A stretch of 11,045 bases of DNA from a virus (IMGVR_UViG_3300010344_001272:1-11045), one strand, 5' to 3'; positions 3 to 10,952 are shown, numbered from the stretch's first letter. Notes: generated by a model from the sequence alone, not told the origin. Translations and numbers: made by a program.

Positions 3-41
3 CCGATATTAAACAAATGGCTTAAAAAACAAGAATCATGA
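3..41 (+). CDS. 3' end of an upstream gene (partial, ...PILNKWLKKQES*)
   Basis: Open frame from the window edge: CCG ATA TTA AAC AAA TGG CTT AAA AAA CAA GAA TCA TGA. Its TGA (39-41) overlaps the nadE ATG (38-40) in the ATGA arrangement used throughout the window. Only 12 codons are visible, so the product cannot be identified. Confidence 0.6.
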   Translation, partial: PILNKWLKKQES

Positions 42-910
42 ATTACGAACTAGTAGTCTCAAAAATACGAGAGCAATTAAAAAAATATATACAGGTACAT
101 GATATTAAAGCGCTTGTTCTTGGAGTTTCTGGTGGAATGGATAGTGCGCTTTGTGCAGCATTAGCAAAACCGGTTTGTGATGCGGCAGGCATTAAATTAA
201 TTGGAAGAAGTATACCAATATCCGGAAACAAGGAAGACGAAAAAAACAGGGCATTTGAAATTGGAACTAATTTTTGTCATGATTTTGACGAAAATTATTT
301 GATGGATGATGATTTTCAAAGTATTTGGTCTCATTTAGATCCAGAGGGTTGGGATATAGCAGATGAAGAAACCACCAGGAAATTCAGGCAAGGAAATATA
401 AAGGCCCGTCTCAGAATGATTTATCTGTATGATTTAGCGCAACTTCATCATGGAATGGTGTTGTCTACAGACAATCTAACGGAGTATCTCCTAGGGTTCT
501 GGACTCTTCATGGAGATGTCGGGGACTATGGTATGATACAGAGACTGTGGAAATCAGAAGTTTATGATTTGGCCGAGTGGATGGTCAACAACGAAAACTG
601 GAATGAAGAGCAAAAAGAAGCTATTCAAAGTTGTATTGATTGTAATGCTACCGATGGTCTTGGAATTACAAATACAGATTTGGATCAGCTGATGCCGGGT
701 TGGACAGGATCGTCAAGAGAAGGATATAAAAAAGTTGATGAAATATTACAGAACTATGAAATGGAATATGCCACTCATGGAGATGACATTATGGAATATG
801 TAGATTTTAATAGTCCTGTTATAATTCGTCATTTAAAAACACGATTTAAACGAGATAATCCGCATAATATCTCGCGATTTGATCTATTTAAAAAACTTCC
901 TCAGTCTTAA
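38..910 (+). CDS. nadE: NH3-dependent NAD(+) synthetase (single domain, no glutaminase domain), 290 aa
   Basis: PP-loop GVSGGMDSA; GNIKARLRMIYLY (NxxARxRM motif); STDNLTE; GFWTLHGD; LWKSEVYDLA; C-terminal KR..P. There is no N-terminal nitrilase-like glutaminase domain. Confidence 0.93.
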   Translation: MNYELVVSKIREQLKKYIQVHDIKALVLGVSGGMDSALCAALAKPVCDAAGIKLIGRSIPISGNKEDEKNRAFEIGTNFCHDFDENYLMDDDFQSIWSHLDPEGWDIADEETTRKFRQGNIKARLRMIYLYDLAQLHHGMVLSTDNLTEYLLGFWTLHGDVGDYGMIQRLWKSEVYDLAEWMVNNENWNEEQKEAIQSCIDCNATDGLGITNTDLDQLMPGWTGSSREGYKKVDEILQNYEMEYATHGDDIMEYVDFNSPVIIRHLKTRFKRDNPHNISRFDLFKKLPQS

Positions 911-921
911 TTTGTATAATA
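891..921 (+). promoter_or_regulatory. Putative phage promoter, AAAAC-N18-TATAATA, upstream of pncA
   Basis: AAAAAC at 891-896 (inside the nadE 3' end), 18-nt spacer, TATAAT at 915-920 followed by A, 13 nt before the pncA ATG. The same architecture recurs at 7396-7426 and 10923-10952. Confidence 0.55.
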
Positions 922-933
922 CTAAAAAATATT

Positions 934-1551
934 ATGAAAAAAGCACTTATAGTCGTTGACGTTCAAAACGACTTCTGTCCAGGAGGTTCGTTAGCAGTTC
1001 CAGAAGGTGATGAAATAATTCCTCTAATTAATAAACTTTTGCCAGAATTTGATTTGGTTATATTTACTATGGATTGGCATAATCCAGAAATGAAAGCATT
1101 CGCTTCTCAACATGAAGGATTAAGTCCATTTGATAAGTATACAAATCCAGATGGTAACGAAGATATTTTGTGGCCTGATCATTGTGTGGCCGAAACCCCA
1201 GGAGCTGAATTACACAAGGATATTGACATTAGTAAATGCAAAAAGGATTTTTATTTCTTTAAAAAGGGAACCGAAAAAGATTTCCATCCTTATAGCGGAT
1301 TTGGAGGAACTGAGTTAGCAGAATTCTTGAATGAACGAAATATTGAAAGAGTTTATGTTGTTGGTCTTGCATTGGATTTTTGTGTTGCTGATACAGCTAT
1401 TGACGCAGCGATGGAGGGGTTTGACACAGTAGTTATTGAAGATGGAACTCGACCAATAAACAGTGACATAAATGATACTTTGAAAAAATTTCAGGAAGCC
1501 GGAGTAAAATTTATTGAAAGTTGGGAAATGGATATGTATGAACTCATGTAA
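934..1551 (+). CDS. pncA: Nicotinamidase/pyrazinamidase (isochorismatase family), 205 aa
   Basis: VVDVQNDFCPGGSLAV, DWH, WPDHCV, KKG, YSGF, GLALDFCV..TAIDA. Catalytic triad D9/K111/C150 and metal ligands D47/H49/H83 are all present. Confidence 0.95.
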   Translation: MKKALIVVDVQNDFCPGGSLAVPEGDEIIPLINKLLPEFDLVIFTMDWHNPEMKAFASQHEGLSPFDKYTNPDGNEDILWPDHCVAETPGAELHKDIDISKCKKDFYFFKKGTEKDFHPYSGFGGTELAEFLNERNIERVYVVGLALDFCVADTAIDAAMEGFDTVVIEDGTRPINSDINDTLKKFQEAGVKFIESWEMDMYELM

Positions 1552-1885
1552 TTCCATATTAGTACCAAAGAGTAAAAAAGAAATCGACGAAGATTTAAAT
1601 AAATTATCATCAACTAAGAAATTTGGAGTTTTAGTTCTTCATGAGATATCTGATATAATTAATGATAGTTCATTTGAGTTTATCGATGTAGTCATTAAAA
1701 AAATTGAATATAAAATCAATGAGGTTGCAGATAAGTGTGAAGTAAATGTTAAAGTAGAAAAACACATATTAGAAAGAGGAACTATTGATTTAATGATATA
1801 TGTTCAGAAAAAAGCTCCTGAGACTATGTGGTTTGTATCAAGTGAAAAAGAAACAAAAGTGTTTAAAATAATAATAAGGGTATGA
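1538..1885 (+). CDS. Hypothetical protein, 115 aa
   Basis: Open frame. ATG at 1538 preferred over the TTG at 1514 given in the track. The TGA overlaps the next ATG (ATGA at 1882-1885). No recognisable motif. Confidence 0.7.
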   Translation: MNSCNSILVPKSKKEIDEDLNKLSSTKKFGVLVLHEISDIINDSSFEFIDVVIKKIEYKINEVADKCEVNVKVEKHILERGTIDLMIYVQKKAPETMWFVSSEKETKVFKIIIRV

Positions 1886-2322
1886 AACAGACACCTAAAA
1901 GCATTTACGAATTCAAAAAAGGAGATAAAATTACGAGAATAAAACCTTCTAAACCTATTGTAAAAATGGGTGAAGAAGAATTTGTTGATCGTAATTTCAT
2001 TGGAACTCCTTTTATATATGTTGGAATAGCAAATGGATGTATCTACTTAAAACGTATTATATCTGAACAAGCAAAAGAAATGATGTCGTTTTTTAGTATG
2101 TTGAGTGGAGGTTCTGGCGAATCTGCATTAATGCATCTTGAATTGGAAATTTTCGAAGAAGGATGGGATTATTATGTCGACCCAACAACTTTAGGGCTTG
2201 ATGACGAAGGAGAAGAATATTCTGTAAAAGAATTAGAAAAACAGAAAAAAGATGCTATCGAAAATGAAGATTATCAAGAAGCTGAACGCTTACAAAAGTT
2301 AATAGACAAAAGAAGAAAATAA
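1882..2322 (+). CDS. Hypothetical protein with C-terminal UVR (UvrB/UvrC-type) coiled-coil motif, 146 aa
   Basis: C-terminal ELEKQKKDAIENEDYQEAERLQKLI matches the UVR pattern L..(M/K)..A...EDYE.AA.L.D.I. Coupled to neighbours at both ends (ATGA, TAATG). Confidence 0.75.
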   Translation: MKQTPKSIYEFKKGDKITRIKPSKPIVKMGEEEFVDRNFIGTPFIYVGIANGCIYLKRIISEQAKEMMSFFSMLSGGSGESALMHLELEIFEEGWDYYVDPTTLGLDDEGEEYSVKELEKQKKDAIENEDYQEAERLQKLIDKRRK

Positions 2323-3074
2323 TGGCTCTTATTAAATGGGATTATGAAGGCGGTTTAATTGGTAATTCTCCAGATTGGTGGGTTGAAAAAGTAGCCAAAA
2401 TGGAGCCTGATCCATATGAAGAAGAAGAGTGTTGTGAAGATTGCGAGGAAGAAGAGTACGAGGAAGAAGAGGAAGAAGAACACAAGCAAAAAACTCTAGA
2501 AGAAATGCTTCGTGAATACAATAATGTAGAAAACCCCTGGTATGAAGTTCGAGATGAACGATGTATGGAAGATGAAGAAAACGAAGAAGATGATGAAATA
2601 AAAGGCCATATAGAAAGTTTTTTAGAAGCATTTAAAGTTCCAAAAAATAAAAGAAAAAGAGTTAGAGAAATCCTTAAAAAGAAAAATTCTGAAAGAACAC
2701 AAGAAGAAAAGGATTTTCTGAAAGAACTGATTAATCGTACAAAGAAAATTGAAGTTCCTAAAATACAGATTGTCAGACAAGATGAGGACCCAAATGATGA
2801 TGAGGGTGAAGACGAGGAAGAAGATGAGGAAATAAGTGCTGATGAAATTGAAAAAGAACTAGAAGCAGAATATGAAAAACAATTAGATGAAGAACTTCGT
2901 CGTCATCGATCAATTGAGTCATTAAAAAGTCAAATTTACGAGTATAGAGATAAAATAACTGATACGAGAGGATGGGGGGATTTAGATGATCCGTCCGCAG
3001 AAGTTTCTTATGATTGGTCTAGTGTAGCATATTTGAAAGAAATGGAAGACTTCCTTAAAAAATTTGAAAAATAA
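2322..3074 (+). CDS. Highly acidic, low-complexity hypothetical protein, 250 aa
   Basis: Long Glu/Asp runs (YEEEECCEDCEEEEYEEEEEEEH; DDEGEDEEEDEEI) around a basic patch (KVPKNKRKRVREILKKKN). Starts by TAATG coupling. Confidence 0.8.
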   Translation: MALIKWDYEGGLIGNSPDWWVEKVAKMEPDPYEEEECCEDCEEEEYEEEEEEEHKQKTLEEMLREYNNVENPWYEVRDERCMEDEENEEDDEIKGHIESFLEAFKVPKNKRKRVREILKKKNSERTQEEKDFLKELINRTKKIEVPKIQIVRQDEDPNDDEGEDEEEDEEISADEIEKELEAEYEKQLDEELRRHRSIESLKSQIYEYRDKITDTRGWGDLDDPSAEVSYDWSSVAYLKEMEDFLKKFEK

Positions 3075-3107
3075 TTTTTTATCTCAATTTTATTTATTAT
3101 ATTAGCA
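3075..3107 (+). promoter_or_regulatory. Possible promoter in the 60-nt intergenic gap before the first radical SAM gene
   Basis: TTTTTT (3075-3080), 17 nt, then TATATTAGCA (3098-3107). TATATTAG is one mismatch from the Bacteroidota sigma70 -7 element TAnnTTTG. No properly spaced -33 TTTG. Weak in such AT-rich DNA. Confidence 0.3.
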
Positions 3108-3134
3108 AGGTAAAAGTAATTAAACTTATTTGCT

Positions 3135-4034
3135 ATGAATATTCAATCAATTTCAATTGTCGTTCCGACAAAAGGATGCGTTAATCAATGTAAATTTTGC
3201 GTATCCAGAATGCACACCAACGATTACGAAAGTAATTTCAATAAATTTCAAATCCAAAAAAGAATCAAATGGGCCGTAATGAATGGGATAAATACCTGTA
3301 TCATTACTGGGACAGGAGAAGCCTTGCAAAATAAACCTTTTTTATATGCGCTGACGGATATTTTTAAGGAACTTGATCATCCGTTTCCGAATGTCGAATT
3401 TCAAACATCAGGTGTTTTATTGACTGCAGCAGATAATATTCAACATCTTAGAGATTTGGGTGTAAATACTATTTCATTATCTGTATCTGATGTTTATGAT
3501 AATTTCAATACAGAAATAATTGGTATGCCCCCATCCTTACGATTTGATCTTAAGGAACTATGTCAGCGAATAAAATACGAAGGATTTAATCTTCGCTTGT
3601 CATTAAATATGACTAAATATTATGATGATTGCACTCCCAAAGATTTGATAAACAGATGCAAACATCTTGGCGCTGACCAAGTAACATTCCGAAAATTGTA
3701 TTTTGCTGATGACAATTCTGAACAAACACAATGGGTTAAACAAAATTCCTGTGAAAAATTATTGGATGAGATAAAATATTACATTCAAGGAATTCCAATG
3801 GAAATTACTAACGTTGGCGGATTTAAATTGCCCAAACCCGGAAGACCAGCCAACGGAACATTACTTTATAAATTACCATTTGGCGCATCGGTATATTCAA
3901 TAAACGGAATGAGTACGGTTATCGATGCTGATTGTATGTCCAAACAAAATGACGAAGCATTAAAATATGTCATCCTTCGTGAAAATGGAAAACTTTATGC
4001 GCGGTGGGATGATGAAGGAAGCTTAATATTCTAA
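3135..4034 (+). CDS. Radical SAM superfamily protein (core fold only), 299 aa
   Basis: CxxxCxxC at C15-C19-C22 (CVNQCKFC), ITGTGEAL (GGEP-like motif), downstream strand pattern EFQTSG / ISLSVS / LRLSLNM. No Cys-rich SPASM/twitch extension. Confidence 0.9.
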   Translation: MNIQSISIVVPTKGCVNQCKFCVSRMHTNDYESNFNKFQIQKRIKWAVMNGINTCIITGTGEALQNKPFLYALTDIFKELDHPFPNVEFQTSGVLLTAADNIQHLRDLGVNTISLSVSDVYDNFNTEIIGMPPSLRFDLKELCQRIKYEGFNLRLSLNMTKYYDDCTPKDLINRCKHLGADQVTFRKLYFADDNSEQTQWVKQNSCEKLLDEIKYYIQGIPMEITNVGGFKLPKPGRPANGTLLYKLPFGASVYSINGMSTVIDADCMSKQNDEALKYVILRENGKLYARWDDEGSLIF

Positions 4035-4036
4035 AC

Positions 4037-4168
4037 ATGGAAACACCAAAAAAACATTCAGACAAAGAATTATTTGACCTCCTTGCCGGAATTATTGAGC
4101 CTGTAACAAGAGGGTACAAAGAAGTTCTTCCTAAACGTGTCAAAAAAGCTAAAAAAGCTAAAAAATGA
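4037..4168 (+). CDS. Small Lys-tailed hypothetical protein, 43 aa (not in the supplied ORF track)
   Basis: ATG at 4037, 2 nt after the radical SAM stop. Translates METPKKHSDKELFDLLAGIIEPVTRGYKEVLPKRVKKAKKAKK, TGA at 4166-4168. It fills an otherwise unexplained gap in a tightly packed region. Confidence 0.7.
   Translation: METPKKHSDKELFDLLAGIIEPVTRGYKEVLPKRVKKAKKAKK
4142..4165 (+). repeat. Short tandem repeat (AAAAAAGCT)x2 + AAAAAA encoding KKAKKAKK
   Basis: Read directly: AAAAAAGCT AAAAAAGCT AAAAAA at 4142-4165. Confidence 0.8.
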
Positions 4169-4177
4169 CAGTTGATA

Positions 4178-4447
4178 ATGGAATGGTATGATCAAATAGA
4201 AGAGCCTGTACGAGAGATAGTAAAGCTATTACGAAATAATGGTTTTAATACTACTTGTTCTTGTGGTCATGAAATGTATATCGAAGGAGATTTACCTGGT
4301 GCAGATTATGAACTTCAACGGCTTCACAAAATGTTATGGGACTATCTCAGTGAACATAATAAACCCATTAGCTACGAAATAAAATTTGATTTAAAAGTAC
4401 AAGAAGGATTTTTATTATATACACGTTTTTATATTGAATTCAAATGA
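4178..4447 (+). CDS. Small protein with a TYW3/Taw3-like N-terminal motif, 89 aa
   Basis: IEEPVREIVKLLRNNGFNTTCSCGH resembles the ID..I..LV..LN..G..T.SSC.G(H/R) motif of TYW3-like proteins. ATG at 4178 preferred over TTG at 4172. Much shorter than true TYW3. Confidence 0.55.
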   Translation: MEWYDQIEEPVREIVKLLRNNGFNTTCSCGHEMYIEGDLPGADYELQRLHKMLWDYLSEHNKPISYEIKFDLKVQEGFLLYTRFYIEFK

Positions 4448-5616
4448 TTATAAAAAGTATTCTCGACACAGACCTTTACAAGCTTACAATGCAGCAAGCT
4501 GTTGTAAAATTATATCCTAGAGCGAAGGTTCAATATTCCTTTATAAATAGGGGAAAAACAGAATTTCCATTAGGATTTGCTGGAGCTATAAGAAGGGAAA
4601 TCAAAGAAATGGAAAGTCTTTTTCTTTCAAACGACGAAAAAGAATTTTTATCCAAGAAGTGTTATTTTTTGGACCCAGTATATTTGGATTTTCTTCAGGG
4701 TTACAGATTTGATTCTTCAGAAATTGGAATCATTCAAACTGGAGGAAATCTTGAAATAAGTATCGAAGGATATTGGTATCGTACAATTCTTTGGGAAGTT
4801 CCACTGATGGCTATTATTTCTGAACTATATTTTAAAATGACAGGACAGAAACCATGGGGTCGAGTGGATAGAGAACAAAACAATAAAAAGAAAGCTAATA
4901 CCTTTCAAATGAAAGGAATGCATTTCGCTGATTTTGGAACCAGAAGAAGATTTTCATATGATGTTCAAGACGAACTTATTGAAGACTTCATGAATTGTTT
5001 CGGAAATCGAGAAAATTTTGTAGGAACTTCTAATGTTCATTTTGCCCATAAATATAACATTACTCCAATGGGCACACATGCACATGAATGGTTTAGTTTT
5101 CATGCAGCCAAGTATGGTTATAAAATGGCCAATACAATGGCGATGGAAGCTTGGTCTAATGTATTCAGAGGAGACCTGGGGATAGCACTTCCTGATACTT
5201 TTACCTCTGATGTTTTCTTCAGACAATTCGAGAAAAAGTTTTCAAAATTATATGATGGAGTTCGTCATGATTCGGGCGATCCAATCGAATTTGCAAAGAA
5301 AGTAATAGCACATTATGAAAGTCAGGGAATAGACCCTAAATCCAAAACCATCATATTTTCAGATAGTTTAAATACTGAAGCAGCAGTTAAAATAAAAGAT
5401 TTCTGTAGAGGAATCATTAAATGTTCTTTTGGTATTGGAACTAATTTTACCAATGATGTAGGGGTTAAACCCCTAAATATGGTCATTAAAATGACTGCTG
5501 CTAAACCATTTAATGATGAATGGATTCATACAATTAAATTGTCTGATGCACCTGGAAAACATACAGGAAATGAAAAAGAAATTGAAGTTTGTAAACATAT
5601 ATTAAGAATACCATGA
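4444..5616 (+). CDS. pncB: Nicotinate phosphoribosyltransferase, 390 aa
   Basis: SILDTDLYKLTMQQAV, FADFGTRRRFS, GTSNV, GTHAHEW (phospho-accepting His, H214), DTF, GVRHDSGDP, IIFSDSL, FGIGTNFTND, LNMVIK, KLSDAPGK. These are the motifs of the E. coli/yeast-type NAPRTase rather than NadV/NAMPT. Confidence 0.95.
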   Translation: MIIKSILDTDLYKLTMQQAVVKLYPRAKVQYSFINRGKTEFPLGFAGAIRREIKEMESLFLSNDEKEFLSKKCYFLDPVYLDFLQGYRFDSSEIGIIQTGGNLEISIEGYWYRTILWEVPLMAIISELYFKMTGQKPWGRVDREQNNKKKANTFQMKGMHFADFGTRRRFSYDVQDELIEDFMNCFGNRENFVGTSNVHFAHKYNITPMGTHAHEWFSFHAAKYGYKMANTMAMEAWSNVFRGDLGIALPDTFTSDVFFRQFEKKFSKLYDGVRHDSGDPIEFAKKVIAHYESQGIDPKSKTIIFSDSLNTEAAVKIKDFCRGIIKCSFGIGTNFTNDVGVKPLNMVIKMTAAKPFNDEWIHTIKLSDAPGKHTGNEKEIEVCKHILRIP

Positions 5617-5798
5617 AAAAATACGAAGTTTTAGTAATTTACCCAGGAATGTATAGCAGACAATATGACGTTTTAGCATCATCTTTTGAAGTTATAGATG
5701 GTGTTTATTATTTTTGGCAAAATGGTGTTTTGCAATGTACTTTTCCTGCAGGCTTAACAATAATAGAAAAAATAAAAGAACATGAAAGTGACAATTAA
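5613..5798 (+). CDS. Hypothetical protein, 61 aa
   Basis: ATGA-coupled to pncB, with a beta-strand-like alternating pattern. No motif recognised. Confidence 0.7.
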   Translation: MKKYEVLVIYPGMYSRQYDVLASSFEVIDGVYYFWQNGVLQCTFPAGLTIIEKIKEHESDN

Positions 5799-6150
5799 TC
5801 ACTCTTACGAATTAACCAATCAGGACATTGACGATATCATGGTCACTGCATTGGAAGGGGCCATCAACTACTGGTGTGGAGCAGCTCATATTTTATCTGT
5901 TCCCAAAAAGTACATAGATGAAGTTAAATACGCCTCTGATGTTATCAGCGTTGGTGGTCAATTATTATTAACTGATGTCGAGGATCCGGAAGAAAAGTGG
6001 ATTTTGGATAAGAAAAAATTTGTGAAAGGATTTAAAAAACATTGTGAGGAACGAGGTGCAAATCCAGAGGACATGGTAGAAGGACATGACGCTACTGATG
6101 CTGATTGTATAATTCAATATGCATTATTTAACGAAATAGTATTCGGATGA
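5782..6150 (+). CDS. Hypothetical protein, 122 aa
   Basis: Open frame, ATGA-coupled to the next gene. ALEGAINYWC and DATDADCIIQYALFNEIVFG look like conserved blocks of a family of unknown function from phages and mobile elements (recollection, unverified). Confidence 0.8.
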   Translation: MKVTINHSYELTNQDIDDIMVTALEGAINYWCGAAHILSVPKKYIDEVKYASDVISVGGQLLLTDVEDPEEKWILDKKKFVKGFKKHCEERGANPEDMVEGHDATDADCIIQYALFNEIVFG

Positions 6151-6974
6151 TTGAGATCGTTAAAAATCGAAAAAGAGAAAAATATACATTTGCCAATATT
6201 AATTTACTTGGTAATTGTAATGCAGATTGCTATTTCTGTTTAGGAAAAGATATACTCCAGGAATTAGCAGGGAAAAATCAATTAAATATTCATTTTTCTA
6301 AATGGAAAAATTTTGAATATTTTTTGCAGCAATGCAAAAAAGAATCTGTAACAAAACTTTATTTAACTGGTCAAACAGCTGACGGATTACAATATCGTTA
6401 TCTCAGTGAAATAATTGACTATTTGCAAGATAAAGGCTTTATTGTTGGCGTTAGAACTAATGGATATTTAGCCGAAACTAAAATGGATTGCATCCATAAA
6501 ATGGATGGAGAAATTGGATATTCTATTCATACATTAAATCGTGAAAAGAATAAAATAATCATGGGAAAAAATTATCTCCCACACTGGGATAAGATAATTC
6601 CTGCTAGTGGTGAAAATGTACGAATATCAATCGTTTTAAATCGCTACAATATTGATGAGTTTGATGATTTAATAAACTTTGCATCTTCATTTCCAAACGT
6701 AAAATATATTCAAGTTAGAAGAATTTCCACAGATACTAGATTGGATTTGCTGCAAAAGGATATTGATATGTTTGAAGAATTTTATCAAAAATTTGCCCAA
6801 ACACATCAACAGGCCGGAAATTATTATTTAGCCCAAAAATATTTTTTAAATGGCAAAGAAATTAATTTTTGGAGAACAGTTGAAACCTCTTGTAATTCAT
6901 TGAATTATTTTACAGATGGAACTTGTAGCAACGAATATTTTATTGTAGAAGGATATTTAAAAAATCATGTATAA
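6147..6974 (+). CDS. Radical SAM superfamily protein (core fold only), 275 aa
   Basis: CxxxCxxC at C24-C28-C31 (CNADCYFC), LYLTGQTADGL in place of GGEP, VRTNG, IGYSIH, VRISIVL. Two further Cys near the C-terminus, not enough for a SPASM domain. Confidence 0.9.
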   Translation: MIEIVKNRKREKYTFANINLLGNCNADCYFCLGKDILQELAGKNQLNIHFSKWKNFEYFLQQCKKESVTKLYLTGQTADGLQYRYLSEIIDYLQDKGFIVGVRTNGYLAETKMDCIHKMDGEIGYSIHTLNREKNKIIMGKNYLPHWDKIIPASGENVRISIVLNRYNIDEFDDLINFASSFPNVKYIQVRRISTDTRLDLLQKDIDMFEEFYQKFAQTHQQAGNYYLAQKYFLNGKEINFWRTVETSCNSLNYFTDGTCSNEYFIVEGYLKNHV

Positions 6975-7398
6975 GCAAGATTCACCAAAACAGGTCATTA
7001 TAATTCGTAAAGACCTGAATATGAGAAAAGGAAAAATGATTGCACAGGGAGCGCACGCTTCGATGAAAGTCATAGCTGATATGATGCAACAATCGGGAGT
7101 TTGGTTTTCAGGAGATCATAAGGATTTTATAAAAGAAAACAAATTAACAATTGTTGTCGATTCTCCTCTCGATAAGTGGTTAAATGGAATATTTAAAAAA
7201 ATAGTTGTGGGTGCCGAAAATTTAAATGACATGATTACGGCCTATAACGAAGCTAAAAAGCAAGGAATTCCATGTTCATTAATCGAAGATGCAGGATTAA
7301 CTGAATTCGGCGGGCAAGTTACAATTACTGCTGCAGCAATAGGACCTGATTCACCAGAAAAAATTGACAAAATTACAGGAAATTTTGTACTTTTGTAA
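6967..7398 (+). CDS. pth2: Peptidyl-tRNA hydrolase, Pth2 (archaeal/eukaryotic-type) family, 143 aa
   Basis: KQVIIIRKDLNMRKGKMIAQGAHAS, KIVV, IEDAGLTEF, T.AAIGP, IDKITG. These are the canonical PTH2 signature blocks. Confidence 0.92.
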   Translation: MYKQDSPKQVIIIRKDLNMRKGKMIAQGAHASMKVIADMMQQSGVWFSGDHKDFIKENKLTIVVDSPLDKWLNGIFKKIVVGAENLNDMITAYNEAKKQGIPCSLIEDAGLTEFGGQVTITAAAIGPDSPEKIDKITGNFVLL

Positions 7399-7426
7399 AA
7401 CGCTTGACAATGTTTAGCATATAATA
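7396..7426 (+). promoter_or_regulatory. Putative phage promoter, TAAAAC-N18-TATAATA, upstream of the UDP-sugar dehydrogenase
   Basis: TAAAAC at 7396-7401 (overlapping the pth2 stop), 18-nt spacer, TATAAT at 7420-7425 followed by ATG. Shares the 10-mer ATATAATATG with the copy at 10945-10954. Confidence 0.6.
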
Positions 7427-7445: not shown

Positions 7446-8309
7446 ATGCTAAGCGAAAAAAGAATAGGAATTGTTGGACAAGGATTTGTTGGCAATTCAA
7501 TAAAAGAAGGAATGATTAAAGATTATCCCAATTTGTTAACATTTGACATTCAACCGAGATTATCAATGTGTAAATCACTTGAAGAATTGGTTAAGCAAAC
7601 AAATGTAATTTTTATTTGCATTCCAACACCTATGCAAAAAGATGGAAAGTGCTATACTGGTTTGTTAGAAGAAGTTGTAGAAGATATATCACAATTAGTT
7701 TCTGATGATGATTATTTTAAGGATAAAATCCTTATTTTAAAAACAACCATTCCTCCTGGAACCACTAAAATGTTGCAGGATAAATATCCATCATTCTTCT
7801 TTGTATTTAATCCAGAGTTCCTAACAGAAGCAAATGCCGTTAATGATTTTAAAAATCAGAATCGCATTGTTTTAGGTGGAGATAGCGATGATGCACTAAA
7901 TGTAGTTTCTGATATTTATAAAAAATCATTTCCATTTATTCCTATTGTAAAAATGACATCACAGGAAGCAGAAATGGTTAAATATGTCACAAACACATTT
8001 TTATCAACAAAGGTTATTTTTGCTAATGAGATGTATCAAATTTGTGAAGGGCTTGGTATTGATTATGAAAGAGTTTATAAAGCAGCTAAGCTTGATACTA
8101 GATTAGGTGAATCACATTGGAAAGTTCCTGGGCCAGATGGAGATTTTGGGTTTGGTGGTCATTGTTTTCCAAAAGATACTAATGCAATAAAATATTTAGC
8201 CAATCAAAATGATGTTGATACAACTCTACTCGATGCTGTTCTTAAAAAGAATAACAAAATAAGAAAAAATCGAGAATGGGAAAATCAAAAAGGTAGATCA
8301 GTAATTTAA
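7446..8309 (+). CDS. UDP-glucose/GDP-mannose dehydrogenase family protein lacking the C-terminal UDP-binding domain, 287 aa
   Basis: Rossmann IGIVGQGFVG, FICIPTP, KTTIPPGTT, FNPEFLTE, AEMVKYVTNTFLSTKVIFANE, GFGGHCFPKD (catalytic Cys). Ends about 40 aa after the Cys motif. Sugar specificity cannot be read from the sequence. Confidence 0.88.
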   Translation: MLSEKRIGIVGQGFVGNSIKEGMIKDYPNLLTFDIQPRLSMCKSLEELVKQTNVIFICIPTPMQKDGKCYTGLLEEVVEDISQLVSDDDYFKDKILILKTTIPPGTTKMLQDKYPSFFFVFNPEFLTEANAVNDFKNQNRIVLGGDSDDALNVVSDIYKKSFPFIPIVKMTSQEAEMVKYVTNTFLSTKVIFANEMYQICEGLGIDYERVYKAAKLDTRLGESHWKVPGPDGDFGFGGHCFPKDTNAIKYLANQNDVDTTLLDAVLKKNNKIRKNREWENQKGRSVI

Positions 8310-8649: not shown

Positions 8650-8918
8650 TGAGTGAATGGGGCGAATCAGCAGGACCTGGAGACAGTGTAATTTACGTTC
8701 CTGATCATGCATTTGTAAATGACAAACCTAATTTTAAACATCCTGACTGTGAATATGGAATAATTAAATCTGCAAACAATAATTGGGTTTTTGTTAACTA
8801 TGTAGTAAATGGAATTGTTCAAGGCACGGCGAAAGCAACAAAGCCAAAGAATATATTTCTATTAAACGGAGATTGTTTTTTTGATGCAATAGAAGTATTT
8901 AACAAACTAAATAAATGA
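8649..8918 (+). CDS. Hypothetical protein, 89 aa
   Basis: TAATG- and ATGA-coupled open frame. The pattern GDSVIYVP...YGIIKS...VFVNY is loosely SH3/KOW-barrel-like but not diagnostic. Confidence 0.7.
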   Translation: MSEWGESAGPGDSVIYVPDHAFVNDKPNFKHPDCEYGIIKSANNNWVFVNYVVNGIVQGTAKATKPKNIFLLNGDCFFDAIEVFNKLNK

Positions 8919-9421
8919 GAACATTAACGATTGGTTTATTTGGAACATGTGGAAATTCTACATGGAGAAATAAGTTCATGGAAGAATATGATAAACAGAA
9001 AATACGATATTTTAATCCTCAAAAAGATGATTGGAAACCAGAGGATGCAGCTATTGAAGCAGAACATTTAGTTAATGACGATATCATACTCTTCCCTGTT
9101 ACTAACGAAACTTTTGGATTTGGAAGTTTAGCCGAAACAGGATTTTCTATTCTTCAGGCCATTAAACTAAATCAGAGACGTAATGTTATAGTAATGATTG
9201 ACCCAGATGTTCCTGTTCCTCAAGTTGAAGTATGGACTAGGGACAACGAATTATCAAGAAAAGATAGTATTCGAACAAGAGCCCTTGTAATGGCTCATCT
9301 AAAAAAATTGGATTATCCCAATGTTTATATTGTCAATAGTTTGGATAACATGCTAAAATTAAGCCTGCATTTGCATGCTATTGAAATTCTAAAAATGGGT
9401 GCTGAAAAATATTGTATATGA
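8915..9421 (+). CDS. Nucleoside 2-deoxyribosyltransferase-like (N-glycosidase fold) protein, 168 aa
   Basis: IGLFGTC..STWR, YFNPQKDDW, E..HL..DDIILF, TFGFGSLAETG match the layout of the NDT-like family (xFLxG..WR / FNP..DW / D.ILF / SLxExG), including the Glu in SLAE. Confidence 0.72.
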   Translation: MRTLTIGLFGTCGNSTWRNKFMEEYDKQKIRYFNPQKDDWKPEDAAIEAEHLVNDDIILFPVTNETFGFGSLAETGFSILQAIKLNQRRNVIVMIDPDVPVPQVEVWTRDNELSRKDSIRTRALVMAHLKKLDYPNVYIVNSLDNMLKLSLHLHAIEILKMGAEKYCI

Positions 9422-9600
9422 AATTAAAAAATCTTATTGAATTATTACAGCAGTATAATTTGGATGCAAATGTTCAAATAGTTGTTGATAGTCATCCTTG
9501 TGACTTTGAAATTTTGTATGGAAGTTCTGAAGGTTGTACAAAAGAAAATTGCGAAGATGTGTATTTGTCTATCGATTTATACAATCACGAAAATATGTAA
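9418..9600 (+). CDS. Hypothetical protein, 60 aa
   Basis: ATG at 9418 (ATGA overlap) preferred over the TTG at 9412. MKLKNLIELLQQYNLDANVQI is the MKvkELIexL..y..DxeV-type start common in small phage proteins. Confidence 0.7.
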   Translation: MKLKNLIELLQQYNLDANVQIVVDSHPCDFEILYGSSEGCTKENCEDVYLSIDLYNHENM

Positions 9601-9602
9601 TC

Positions 9603-10076
9603 ATGAAATATGTTGATGGAGATTTAATAGAATTAGCAAAGCAAGATAAATTTGATTTAATTGCTCATGGATGTAATTGTTTTAACACAATGGGCGCTGG
9701 CATTGCCAAAAGAATAAAAGAGGAATTTGAAGATGCGTATAATGCTGATAAAAGAACAATAAGTGGAGATATAAACAAACTTGGCAACTACTCAGAATCA
9801 TTTGTTAGTAATCACAATACGTGGGGAAAATTAAAAGTGATTAATTGCTACACGCAATATCATTATGGAAAAAATCATATTGATGGTAGTGAAAAACCTA
9901 TTGATTATGAAGCATTAACTTTATGTATGAGAAAAATAAATCATAATTATAAAGGAAAGAAAATAGGACTTCCAAAAATTGGGGCAGGATTAGCCGGTGG
10001 TGATTGGAATGTGATTGCCAAAATCATTGAGAGAGAATTAAAAGACCTTGATGTTACTGTTGTTTGTTTCAAATGA
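9603..10076 (+). CDS. Macrodomain protein (TARG1/DarG/T4 Tk.4-like ADP-ribose-processing family), 157 aa
   Basis: YVDGDL, IAHGCNCFNTMGAGIAKRIKEEF, VINCYTQ, IGLPKIGAGLAGGDW. Start is the ATG at 9603, 2 nt after the previous stop; the 9534 start in the track adds 23 implausible residues overlapping the upstream gene. Confidence 0.9.
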   Translation: MKYVDGDLIELAKQDKFDLIAHGCNCFNTMGAGIAKRIKEEFEDAYNADKRTISGDINKLGNYSESFVSNHNTWGKLKVINCYTQYHYGKNHIDGSEKPIDYEALTLCMRKINHNYKGKKIGLPKIGAGLAGGDWNVIAKIIERELKDLDVTVVCFK

Positions 10077-10922: not shown

Positions 10923-10952
10923 TAAAACTTTTCAAAATCTTCATATATAATA
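10923..10952 (+). promoter_or_regulatory. Putative phage promoter, TAAAAC-N17-TATAATA
   Basis: TAAAAC at 10923-10928, 17-nt spacer, TATAAT at 10946-10951 followed by ATG, in intergenic DNA. Third copy of the motif. Confidence 0.6.

Follow-up and report, generated by a model that had tools for sequence, protein, structure and literature searches.

When examining an 11,045-nt stretch (hereinafter, the window) of an 82.6-kb phage contig from IMG/VR, we found that, in agreement with the original prediction, intact genes for PncA, PncB and an NH3-dependent NadE lie within 5.6 kb of each other on the same (+) strand. The nadE gene (38-910; 290 aa) encodes an NH3-dependent NAD+ synthetase that would convert NaAD to NAD+; pncA (934-1551; 205 aa), a nicotinamidase predicted to hydrolyze nicotinamide to nicotinate and NH3; and pncB (4444-5616; 390 aa), an ATP-coupled nicotinate phosphoribosyltransferase predicted to produce NaMN from nicotinate and PRPP. 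The genes are interspersed, also as predicted, with four family-less ORFs (1514-1885, 1882-2322, 2322-3074 and 4172-4447) as well as a radical SAM gene located between pncA and pncB (3135-4034, + strand; PF04055, 2.6e-13). The layout is indeed not that of a bacterial nad operon, and no NrtR, NadR or NiaR regulator was seen in the window. The set is embedded in an extended array of co-directional housekeeping genes for nucleotide and RNA functions, namely, those for Ro60/TROVE, dCMP deaminase, PTH2 and a macro-domain protein. The latter gene (9534-10076, + strand; PF01661, 3e-05; phrog_335, 1.8e-58), presumably involved in ADP-ribose processing, shows a weak DarG-like match, has BT1257 (2fg1) as the nearest PDB entry, and occupies the same relative position in the related loci L006-L008 and L083. 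Three perfect copies of the promoter-like motif AAAAC-N18-TATAATA are present in the window, compared with a chance expectation of 0.01, one just 5' of pncA (892-921, + strand) and the others at 7397 and 10924; these positions suggest that pncA through PTH2 (934-7398) form a single transcription unit.

The NadE protein belongs to PF02540 (4.2e-32) and scores 111.7 bits with TIGR00552 (cut-off, 63.65); it contains the SGGxDS pyrophosphatase loop (P-loop S31-G-G-M-D-S36, residues 31-36) and no glutaminase domain, and in the PDB it best matches NH3-dependent NAD synthetases. Across 15 viral copies, residues S31, G32, G33, D35, S36, N120, R124, R126, E149, G159, D160 and K172 are invariant. PncB is a type I nicotinate phosphoribosyltransferase (TIGR01514, 446.5 bits versus 269.55; NF003704, 484 bits versus 379; best PDB match 2im5, 1.4e-117), in which H214 of the GTHAHEW motif (GT-x-AHEW), which we take, from Salmonella and yeast PncB, to be the phosphorylated histidine, does not vary across the 23 viral copies, nor do R167, T211, S306 and T333. 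Curated family cut-offs are passed by NadE, PncB and NadD (see below) but not by PncA, for which the best NCBIfam model, nicotinamidase/pyrazinamidase NF008623, yields 146.9 bits, under the cut-off of 174. PncA nevertheless belongs to PF00857 (1.3e-26), has the Acinetobacter nicotinamidase 2wt9 as the best PDB match (1.9e-42), and, when aligned to 2wt9, 1ilw and 2h0r, displays the complete Asp-Lys-Cys triad (D9/K111/C150) along with the metal ligands D47, H49 and H83. The dN/dS ratios computed against two relatives, which are approximate because dS is about 1 or more, span 0.06-0.13 (nadE, 0.10-0.13; pncA, 0.06-0.11; pncB, ~0.07) and indicate that all three genes are under purifying selection. 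The three enzymes look functional. The identity of the genes, their catalytic motifs, purifying selection, viral origin and conserved synteny are evident in the sequence itself; the enzyme activities, substrate preferences, expression and physiological role we infer.

The adenylyltransferase step, which the original prediction could only bracket, is accounted for by a nadD gene on the same contig (36961-37536, + strand; 191 aa), outside the window and 31 kb downstream of the set, that would convert NaMN to NaAD. This is the only cytidylyltransferase-like gene on the contig; its flanking genes encode guanylate kinase and peptide deformylase, and relatives retain this order. The protein matches PF01467 (64.6 bits) and TIGR00482 (116.1 bits versus 112.45), its best PDB matches are NadD structures, and it contains the (H/T)xxH motif as T14-x-x-H17 and, at 156-162, VSSTVVR, of the ISSTxxR type. 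Threonine in place of the first histidine of the HxGH-type motif is an allowed variant, and a preference for NaMN or NMN cannot be read from the sequence. With NadD on the same contig, genes for the entire route from nicotinamide through nicotinate, NaMN and NaAD to NAD+ are present. Conceivably, the last two reactions could proceed in the reverse order, with NadE, similarly to the Francisella tularensis enzyme, amidating NaMN to NMN, on which the adenylyltransferase would then act: NadE is divergent and falls far under several equivalog cut-offs (for NF010587, 108.6 versus 255), its C-terminal loop departs from the usual P(S/T)A...QxDE pattern, and the Francisella enzyme 3fiu is among its top three PDB matches. 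We consider such a reversal unlikely given that the two best PDB matches are ordinary NH3-dependent NAD synthetases, those of Campylobacter and Helicobacter, which share with NadE the same TL/TI-x-GD variant, and that the adenylyltransferase fits the NadD equivalog and not NadM or NadR; moreover, no sequence feature separates the two NadE substrates.

The viral status of the contig is indicated by the IMG/VR record itself, by a capsid gene of the gp23 type (50140-51897), and by PHROG matches. Could the contig instead be cellular or chimeric, so that the genes in question are ordinary bacterial nad genes? One close homolog of NadE is filed under a 'Candidatus Glassbacteria' MAG, and TonB-receptor or ABC-transporter genes are found nearby in relatives. 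The phage synteny (TROVE, CSD, dCMP deaminase, NadE, PncA) is, however, found on the MAG contig too, and no cellular PncB is closer than ~56% identity; together with the capsid gene, the PHROG matches, and the dense, co-directional small ORFs without family, this makes a cellular origin extremely improbable. CheckV puts the completeness of the 82.6-kb contig at ~20%, which implies a genome of ~400 kb, and a relative is found on a 376-kb contig. With only about one fifth of the genome in hand, other NAD routes or NAD-consuming enzymes may occur elsewhere in it.

The block dCMP deaminase-NadE-PncA-...-PncB-...-PTH2-...-Macro, with nadE directly 3' of the dCMP deaminase gene, is kept in every sampled relative, down to ~53% NadE identity; the same gene order was observed in five IMG/VR relatives and in 4 of the 4 sampled contexts of NadE homologs with 52-59% identity, one of them a 376-kb contig. 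A search with NadE yielded 2967 matches, the best 120 of which are all at least 51% identical to the query, and the protein falls in a large clade of metagenomic sequences, with phage-type gene order in the contexts of all five sampled relatives. On this evidence, the set is a lineage-wide, core-like module rather than a variable island. As to whether viral copies form clades of their own, in the PncB tree, the window copy belongs to a supported viral clade of six members (SH-aLRT 96); taken as a whole, the viral PncBs are polyphyletic. Among 16 IMG/VR loci, those with NadE no more than 10 kb from PncB number 12, compared with 7 for PncA and 2 for NadD, so that PncB with NadE is the commonest pairing. 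A complete 350-kb phage possesses PncB and NadE, with PncA and NadD both absent, and in one relative, PncA has lost K111 and C150 although PncB and NadE are retained. Taken together, the prevalent pairing, the 350-kb phage and the degenerate PncA suggest selection on the flux from nicotinate to NAD+ in general and not strictly on nicotinamide recycling.

Neither the combination of genes, which the original prediction could not confirm to be unreported, nor the hypothesis on its role is new. Preiss-Handler clusters of pncB, nadD and nadE, exemplified by that of Kuafu_71, have been described in 'NAD-jumbo phages', along with phage pncA, and the roles proposed are independent NAD+ supply and, hypothetically, a counter to NAD+ depletion (Li et al., Microbiome 2024, PMC11662467). 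These phages are defined by a size over 200 kb and at least one complete NAD+ pathway; here, the pathway is complete and the size, ~400 kb, is extrapolated from the 82.6-kb fragment. Unlike in the published clusters, pncA is an intact, conserved member of the set, so that the route would be fed by nicotinamide; nadD is not part of the cluster but is found at a distance of 31 kb, next to the genes for guanylate kinase and peptide deformylase; and the block is syntenic across a deep lineage. An isochorismatase/PncA-like gene and genes for NAPRTase, NaMN/NMN adenylyltransferase and NAD synthetase are also found in two cultured phages with genomes over 460 kb, Bacillus phage G (gp273-gp283, NC_023719) and Sinorhizobium phage Phosso (genes 366-377, PV764938), within ~6 kb and interleaved with small ORFs. 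In GenBank, the products are labeled NAPRTase, NadD/NMNAT and NadE as such, the PncA-like proteins only isochorismatase or 'hydrolase'. Sequence identity to the window proteins is only 24-29%, the PncBs of both phages branch far from the clade of the window copy, and, in our alignment, the PncA-like protein of phage G has Asn at the position of the catalytic Lys. Both clusters include a Nudix/MutT gene, whereas the contig yielded no Nudix gene, and the cluster of phage G additionally contains a KptA-like gene. The four families and their predicted chemistry are those of bacterial salvage pathway I (PncA-PncB-NadD-NadE), in this case virus-borne and not organized as a bacterial nad operon.

Depletion of NAD+ is a common anti-phage strategy of bacteria. 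Three phage routes of NAD+ rebuilding have been proven experimentally, whereas the deamidating route, although common in huge phages, has so far been proposed in print as a counter-measure. NARP2 (Nampt/NadV and Nmnat), experimentally shown to counter defenses (Osterman et al. 2024), likewise is a phage-encoded route from nicotinamide and PRPP to NAD+, but employs two enzymes and amidated compounds throughout (nicotinamide, NMN, NAD+). The route described here would require four enzymes and proceed via nicotinate, NaMN and NaAD at a higher cost in ATP. Restoration of NAD+ is also the outcome of NARP1 (Adps and Namat), in which ADP-ribose is recycled through a PRPS-like enzyme, and of NARP3 (PnuC and NadR), in which nicotinamide riboside is imported; with NARP3 published (Sci Adv 2026, PMC13464706), the place of the third pathway, for which this locus was originally put forward, is taken. 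The claimed difference in chemistry from NARP1 and NARP2 stands, given that deamidation followed by Preiss-Handler steps is encoded. On the 82.6-kb contig, pncB is the sole NAPRTase-family gene and matches the PncB equivalog, with no second member of the NAPRTase/Nampt family, the adenylyltransferase is of the NadD type, and there is no Pribosyltran_N match indicative of a PRPS-like Adps, no NadR-type nucleotidyltransferase and no full-length PnuC, only a half-size ORF of 73 aa that matches the PnuC C-terminal half.

We favor, with some confidence, the view that the phage possesses a complete deamidating NAD+ salvage pathway that is a core-like module for general NAD+ supply. Under this scenario, PncA would hydrolyze nicotinamide to nicotinate, PncB would convert nicotinate and PRPP to NaMN in an ATP-driven reaction through phospho-histidine (H214), NadD would adenylate NaMN to NaAD, and the NH3-dependent NadE would amidate the latter to NAD+. 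Vertically inherited and core-like in a lineage of huge T4-like phages, the module would most likely raise the capacity of the infected cell for NAD+ synthesis and recycling over the course of a long, demanding infection, protection against NAD-cleaving host defenses being a plausible extra benefit rather than a demonstrated primary purpose. That the four enzymes mainly rebuild NAD+ from the nicotinamide freed by NADase effectors of the Sir2, TIR or SEFIR type, as a deamidating analog of NARP2, is a possibility to which we assign a distinctly lower probability. The substrate of PncA is the very compound that NADases release, one contig carries the complete pathway, and the NARP1, NARP2 and NARP3 systems show that NAD+ resynthesis by phages can defeat such defenses; these precedents, along with the conserved macro-domain neighbor, point towards a conflict over NAD or ADP-ribose. 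Furthermore, Bacteroides thetaiotaomicron, from our control set, matches the PncB (NAPRTase) and NadD models and shows no isochorismatase-family match, so that, if the host is similar, the phage would supply a recycling step that the cell lacks. Such a role was proposed by Li et al. (PMC11662467), but the literature we searched contains no experiment on the deamidating route, be it NAD+ restoration or phage rescue.

Several features of the locus speak against a primarily counter-defensive function. The genes make up a block with deeply conserved synteny, surrounded by genes of the housekeeping type, and not a variable anti-defense island (although such conservation does not exclude this function), and some relatives that retain PncB and NadE have a degenerate PncA or none at all. 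In addition, the set is mostly found in phages over 400 kb with many metabolic genes, and, by established enzymology, ADP-ribose is not reused whereas PRPP is spent, plus ATP at three steps. Clearance of nicotinamide activates sirtuin-type enzymes, as in the case of yeast Pnc1 and Sir2. The suggestion that removal of this product inhibitor would help the phage therefore has the direction reversed, since clearing it would relieve the inhibition of sirtuin-type NADases, to the detriment of the phage. The idea that deamidated intermediates escape NADases found no support and would be of minor importance, NAD+ being the end product all the same. Only tentatively do we entertain a true fourth NAD+ reconstitution counter-defense, a lineage-wide core module that would recycle nicotinamide in hosts devoid of nicotinamidase and blunt NAD+ depletion by Sir2-, TIR- or SEFIR-type effectors; if real, it would open in such hosts a recycling route that the cell itself lacks. 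As a discovery, the locus adds little to the literature and GenBank annotations, but it offers one clean, complete and well-conserved set, with four intact genes and named catalytic residues, in which counter-defense can be tested, and the behavior of its genes as core metabolism rather than a swappable anti-defense island bears on the interpretation of such sets.

The radical SAM gene is located between pncA and pncB in loci L006-L010, L079 and L083 and is absent in L081/L082 and L084. To our knowledge, no known NAD step requires such an enzyme, so this is a frequent neighbor whose membership in the pathway is doubtful. The window also contains a nucleoside-deoxyribosyltransferase-like gene, and such a gene is found nearby in Phosso as well.

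The original prediction was that intact pncA, pncB and nadE genes lie within a 5.6-kb stretch of this phage-like DNA, and positions, catalytic motifs and low dN/dS values agree on this point. NadE (38-910, + strand) belongs to the PF02540 family, matches TIGR00552 with 111.7 bits (cut-off 63.65) and contains the SGGMDS motif at residues 31-36 along with the conserved Arg, Asp, Glu and Lys positions. The protein is divergent: it falls far short of several equivalog models and has an unusual C-terminal loop. A glutaminase domain is lacking, and the structures closest to the protein come from the NH3-dependent enzymes of Campylobacter and Helicobacter and then from Francisella, in agreement with the NH3-dependent type originally assigned. 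PncA (934-1551, + strand) is a member of the isochorismatase family whose top NCBIfam model is nicotinamidase/pyrazinamidase, at 146.9 bits, which is below the cut-off of 174; it is alignable to the solved nicotinamidases 2wt9 (1.9e-42), 1ilw and 2h0r, and retains the Asp-Lys-Cys triad of the active site (D9, K111, C150) as well as the metal-binding residues D47, H49 and H83. PncB (4444-5616, + strand) clearly exceeds the cut-offs of TIGR01514 (446.5 bits versus 269.55) and NF003704 (484 versus 379), and shares ~55% identity with 2im5, the enzyme of Porphyromonas gingivalis (1.4e-117); the histidine of its GT-x-AHEW motif, H214, is invariant across 23 viral copies. Compared with two relatives, dN/dS is 0.10-0.13 for NadE, 0.06-0.11 for PncA and ~0.07 for PncB, values that are rough at dS of about 1 or more.

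A search of the whole contig, that is, the complete IMG/VR record, with a cytidylyltransferase-like model for an adenylyltransferase matched one gene, nadD (contig positions 36961-37536, + strand, outside the window; TIGR00482, 116.1 bits versus 112.45). The product contains the motifs T14-x-x-H17 and VSSTVVR, and its structure matches are NadD structures. The gene is flanked by guanylate kinase on one side and peptide deformylase on the other, an order retained in relatives that are ~50% identical; a pattern-based search of IMG/VR detected no NadD relatives, whereas a protein search did recover them. In the relatives P0127, P0129-P0131, P0134 and P0136, a MazG-like pyrophosphohydrolase domain is fused to the adenylyltransferase, yielding proteins of ~300 aa with 43-55% identity to the phage NadD, and a full-length PnuC gene is located 1 kb upstream of P0129. 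A hidden nadD upstream of nadE was considered and rejected: the overlapping upstream gene in relatives is a dCMP/cytidine deaminase. Because NadD is found on the contig, the deamidating route from nicotinamide to NAD+ is encoded in full, including the NaAD step that had been placed in brackets. PncA would convert nicotinamide to nicotinate, PncB nicotinate to NaMN, NadD, encoded elsewhere on the contig, NaMN to NaAD in the third step, and NadE NaAD to NAD+. This chemistry is read from the enzyme families; the role of the route is inferred.

The 82,645-base record, which begins with the 11,045 bases of the window, is ~20% complete according to CheckV. In the window, long ORFs, nearly all on the + strand, are tightly packed, G+C is 29-36%, and there are no tRNA genes. 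Several of the ORFs match PHROG families, and the contig encodes a gp23-type major capsid protein (50140-51897; PF07068, over the cut-off). These findings bear out the viral origin that was to be confirmed, and because of the capsid gene on the same contig the reading of the contig as cellular was rejected. Complete huge-phage genomes of 462-735 kb are among the nearest GenBank relatives of PncB; no GenBank phage was matched by the whole window in a megablast search. There are weak hints of a Bacteroidota host, namely, the Porphyromonas enzyme as the best structure match of PncB and the TonB-receptor and DUF5020 genes carried by relatives. In these relatives, a TonB-dependent receptor gene, or OmpA-like, ABC-transporter and DUF5020 genes, lie 3' of the NAD block (L079:16307-16891, L081:12526-16639, contig places of NadE homologues); such envelope and uptake genes could be either carried by the phage or signs of mis-binning.

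The order NadE-PncA-...-radical SAM-...-PncB-...-PTH2-...-Macro is found in five IMG/VR contigs, at 50-90% protein identity. A protein search with NadE gave 2967 hits, the best 120 of which are all at least 51% identical, and in all four look-ups of contigs with NadE homologues (five places) the same block was present, in the form TROVE/Ro60 ... dCMP deaminase-NadE-isochorismatase-...-NAPRTase where the locus extends that far, with PTH2 and the macro gene also in some of them. One of these places is on a 376-kb contig, another on a contig from a bin named 'Candidatus Glassbacteria'. Phylogenetic analysis of PncB placed the window copy within a supported six-member viral clade; as to whether viral copies form clades of their own, this group does, and viral PncBs overall are polyphyletic, the supported branches forcing at least four changes. 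The cellular sequences in this tree were chosen by peptide patterns, a biased sample that includes no Bacteroidota, and the nearest of them are ~55-56% identical; with a maximum of ~56% identity in such a sample, no donor lineage can be named. Among 16 IMG/VR loci, the neighbors within 10 kb of PncB include NadE in 12, PncA in seven and NadD in two, and one complete phage genome of 350 kb encodes PncB and NadE while both PncA and NadD are absent. At another place of a NadE homologue, both the Lys and the Cys of the active site are replaced by Arg in the PncA-like gene (L083:8851-9432), and a metal-binding Asp by Glu, so that nicotinamidase activity is probably lost, while the NadE and PncB beside it look intact; the adjoining NadE homologue, P0034, is listed on 37 contigs. 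Taken together, the locus counts, the 350-kb phage and this altered gene make it look as though PncB and NadE are the stable core, to which PncA and NadD are commonly added.

Among the phage routes that rebuild NAD+, NARP1 consists of Adps and Namat, and NARP2 of Nampt and Nmnat (Osterman et al. 2024); as originally stated, neither deamidates nicotinamide, unlike the route described here, and the NARP1/2 preprint makes no mention of PncA, NadE or nicotinate. The place of a third pathway, however, is already taken by NARP3, PnuC plus NadR, published in August 2026 (PMC13464706). Two surveys (PMC9503650, PMC7824862) that deal with viral NAD+ and jumbo-phage conflict systems cover only NadV, NadM and NadR, and "NAD-jumbo phages" have been defined by Li et al. 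(Microbiome 2024, PMC11662467). Nor is the combination unreported, since GenBank contains the full set in two phages: Bacillus phage G (gp275 isochorismatase, gp277 NAPRTase, gp281 NadD, gp283 NadE, plus Nudix and KptA) and Sinorhizobium phage Phosso (hydrolase, NMNAT, MutT, NAPRTase and NadE, plus a deoxyribosyltransferase by the NAD genes). In both, the set lies inside ~6 kb, whereas here nadD is located elsewhere on the contig. The literature searched yielded no experiment that tests the deamidating route.

The route was proposed to counter NAD-cleaving defense. This is plausible as an added bonus, given that the starting compound of the pathway is the NADase product, that other phage NAD+ routes beat such defenses, and that a macro domain is a conserved neighbor. 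Moreover, in a Bacteroides control genome there were matches to the PncB (NAPRTase) and NadD models and none to the isochorismatase family, so that in a host of this kind the phage would add a step missing from the cell. As the main role, however, counter-defense fits poorly with a block that forms part of a housekeeping-like array and whose synteny is deeply conserved, and with relatives that dispense with PncA; furthermore, the route makes no use of ADP-ribose, consumes PRPP and needs ATP at three steps. Nicotinamide is a product inhibitor of sirtuin-type NADases, and its removal, originally put forward as something that could matter, would relieve the inhibition of these enzymes rather than hinder them. 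Therefore, we favor general NAD+ supply and recycling during a long, costly infection, with evasion of defense as a bonus.

The predicted orphan ORFs are indeed interspersed among the NAD genes, where Pfam and NCBIfam searches leave three family-less ORFs and a 91-aa ORF beside a radical SAM gene (3135-4034). By Pfam, none of the interspersed ORFs is a kinase, phosphatase or vWA gene, and a borderline UVR motif in ORF 1882-2322 was the only signal; ORF 2322-3074 (250 aa) has no usable Atlas match. Downstream are a second radical SAM gene, PTH2, a short UDP-glucose-dehydrogenase-like gene, a nucleoside-deoxyribosyltransferase-like gene and the macro-domain gene. Thus, pncB is flanked on both sides by short radical SAM genes (3135-4034 and 6147-6974). 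The former, with dN/dS of ~0.07, recurs in the pncA-pncB interval of most but not all relatives, and in L079 a PP-binding, carrier-protein-like ORF comes before it; being present in some contexts and absent in others, it is a frequent neighbor rather than a fixed member. To our knowledge, no NAD step requires such an enzyme. The UDP-glucose/GDP-mannose dehydrogenase-like protein (7446-8309) is only 287 aa long: the NAD-binding domain is missing approximately its first 60 positions, and the C-terminal domain is missing entirely. Its 91-92% identity in relatives and dN/dS of 0.05-0.07 indicate a conserved truncated form, not a decaying gene. The Nuc_deoxyri_tr2-like protein (8915-9421) falls into large clusters that are mostly viral (Atlas score 0.97, TM 0.90); its gene is absent in the closest relatives (L006-L008), which makes a link to NAD doubtful.

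A scan for sigma-70 promoters and terminators found nothing convincing within the block. The + strand carries three copies of the pattern AAAAC-N17/18-TATAATA (892-921, 7397-7426, 10924-10952; 0.01 expected by chance). Two are just 5' of the starts of pncA and the dehydrogenase-like gene, and one comes after the final + strand ORF in the window; the pattern is a candidate phage promoter. Searches of the contig for Nudix, NAD-dependent ligase, PRPS-like and second NAPRTase/Nampt genes found none, a result that weighs little in ~20% of a genome. Outside the window, a 73-aa three-helix ORF (G000:C1:75463-75684, minus strand; L086:1464-1685:- in the contig slice) matches only the C-terminal half of PnuC (PF04973 positions 112-175, 44.6 bits versus the 27.3 cut-off), and Atlas clusters of 71-73-aa PnuC look-alikes, with 282, 268 and 71 members, are almost all viral. 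By analogy with SemiSWEETs, this protein may be a half-size PnuC acting as a dimer and, conceivably, could serve the phage in taking up an NAD+ precursor.
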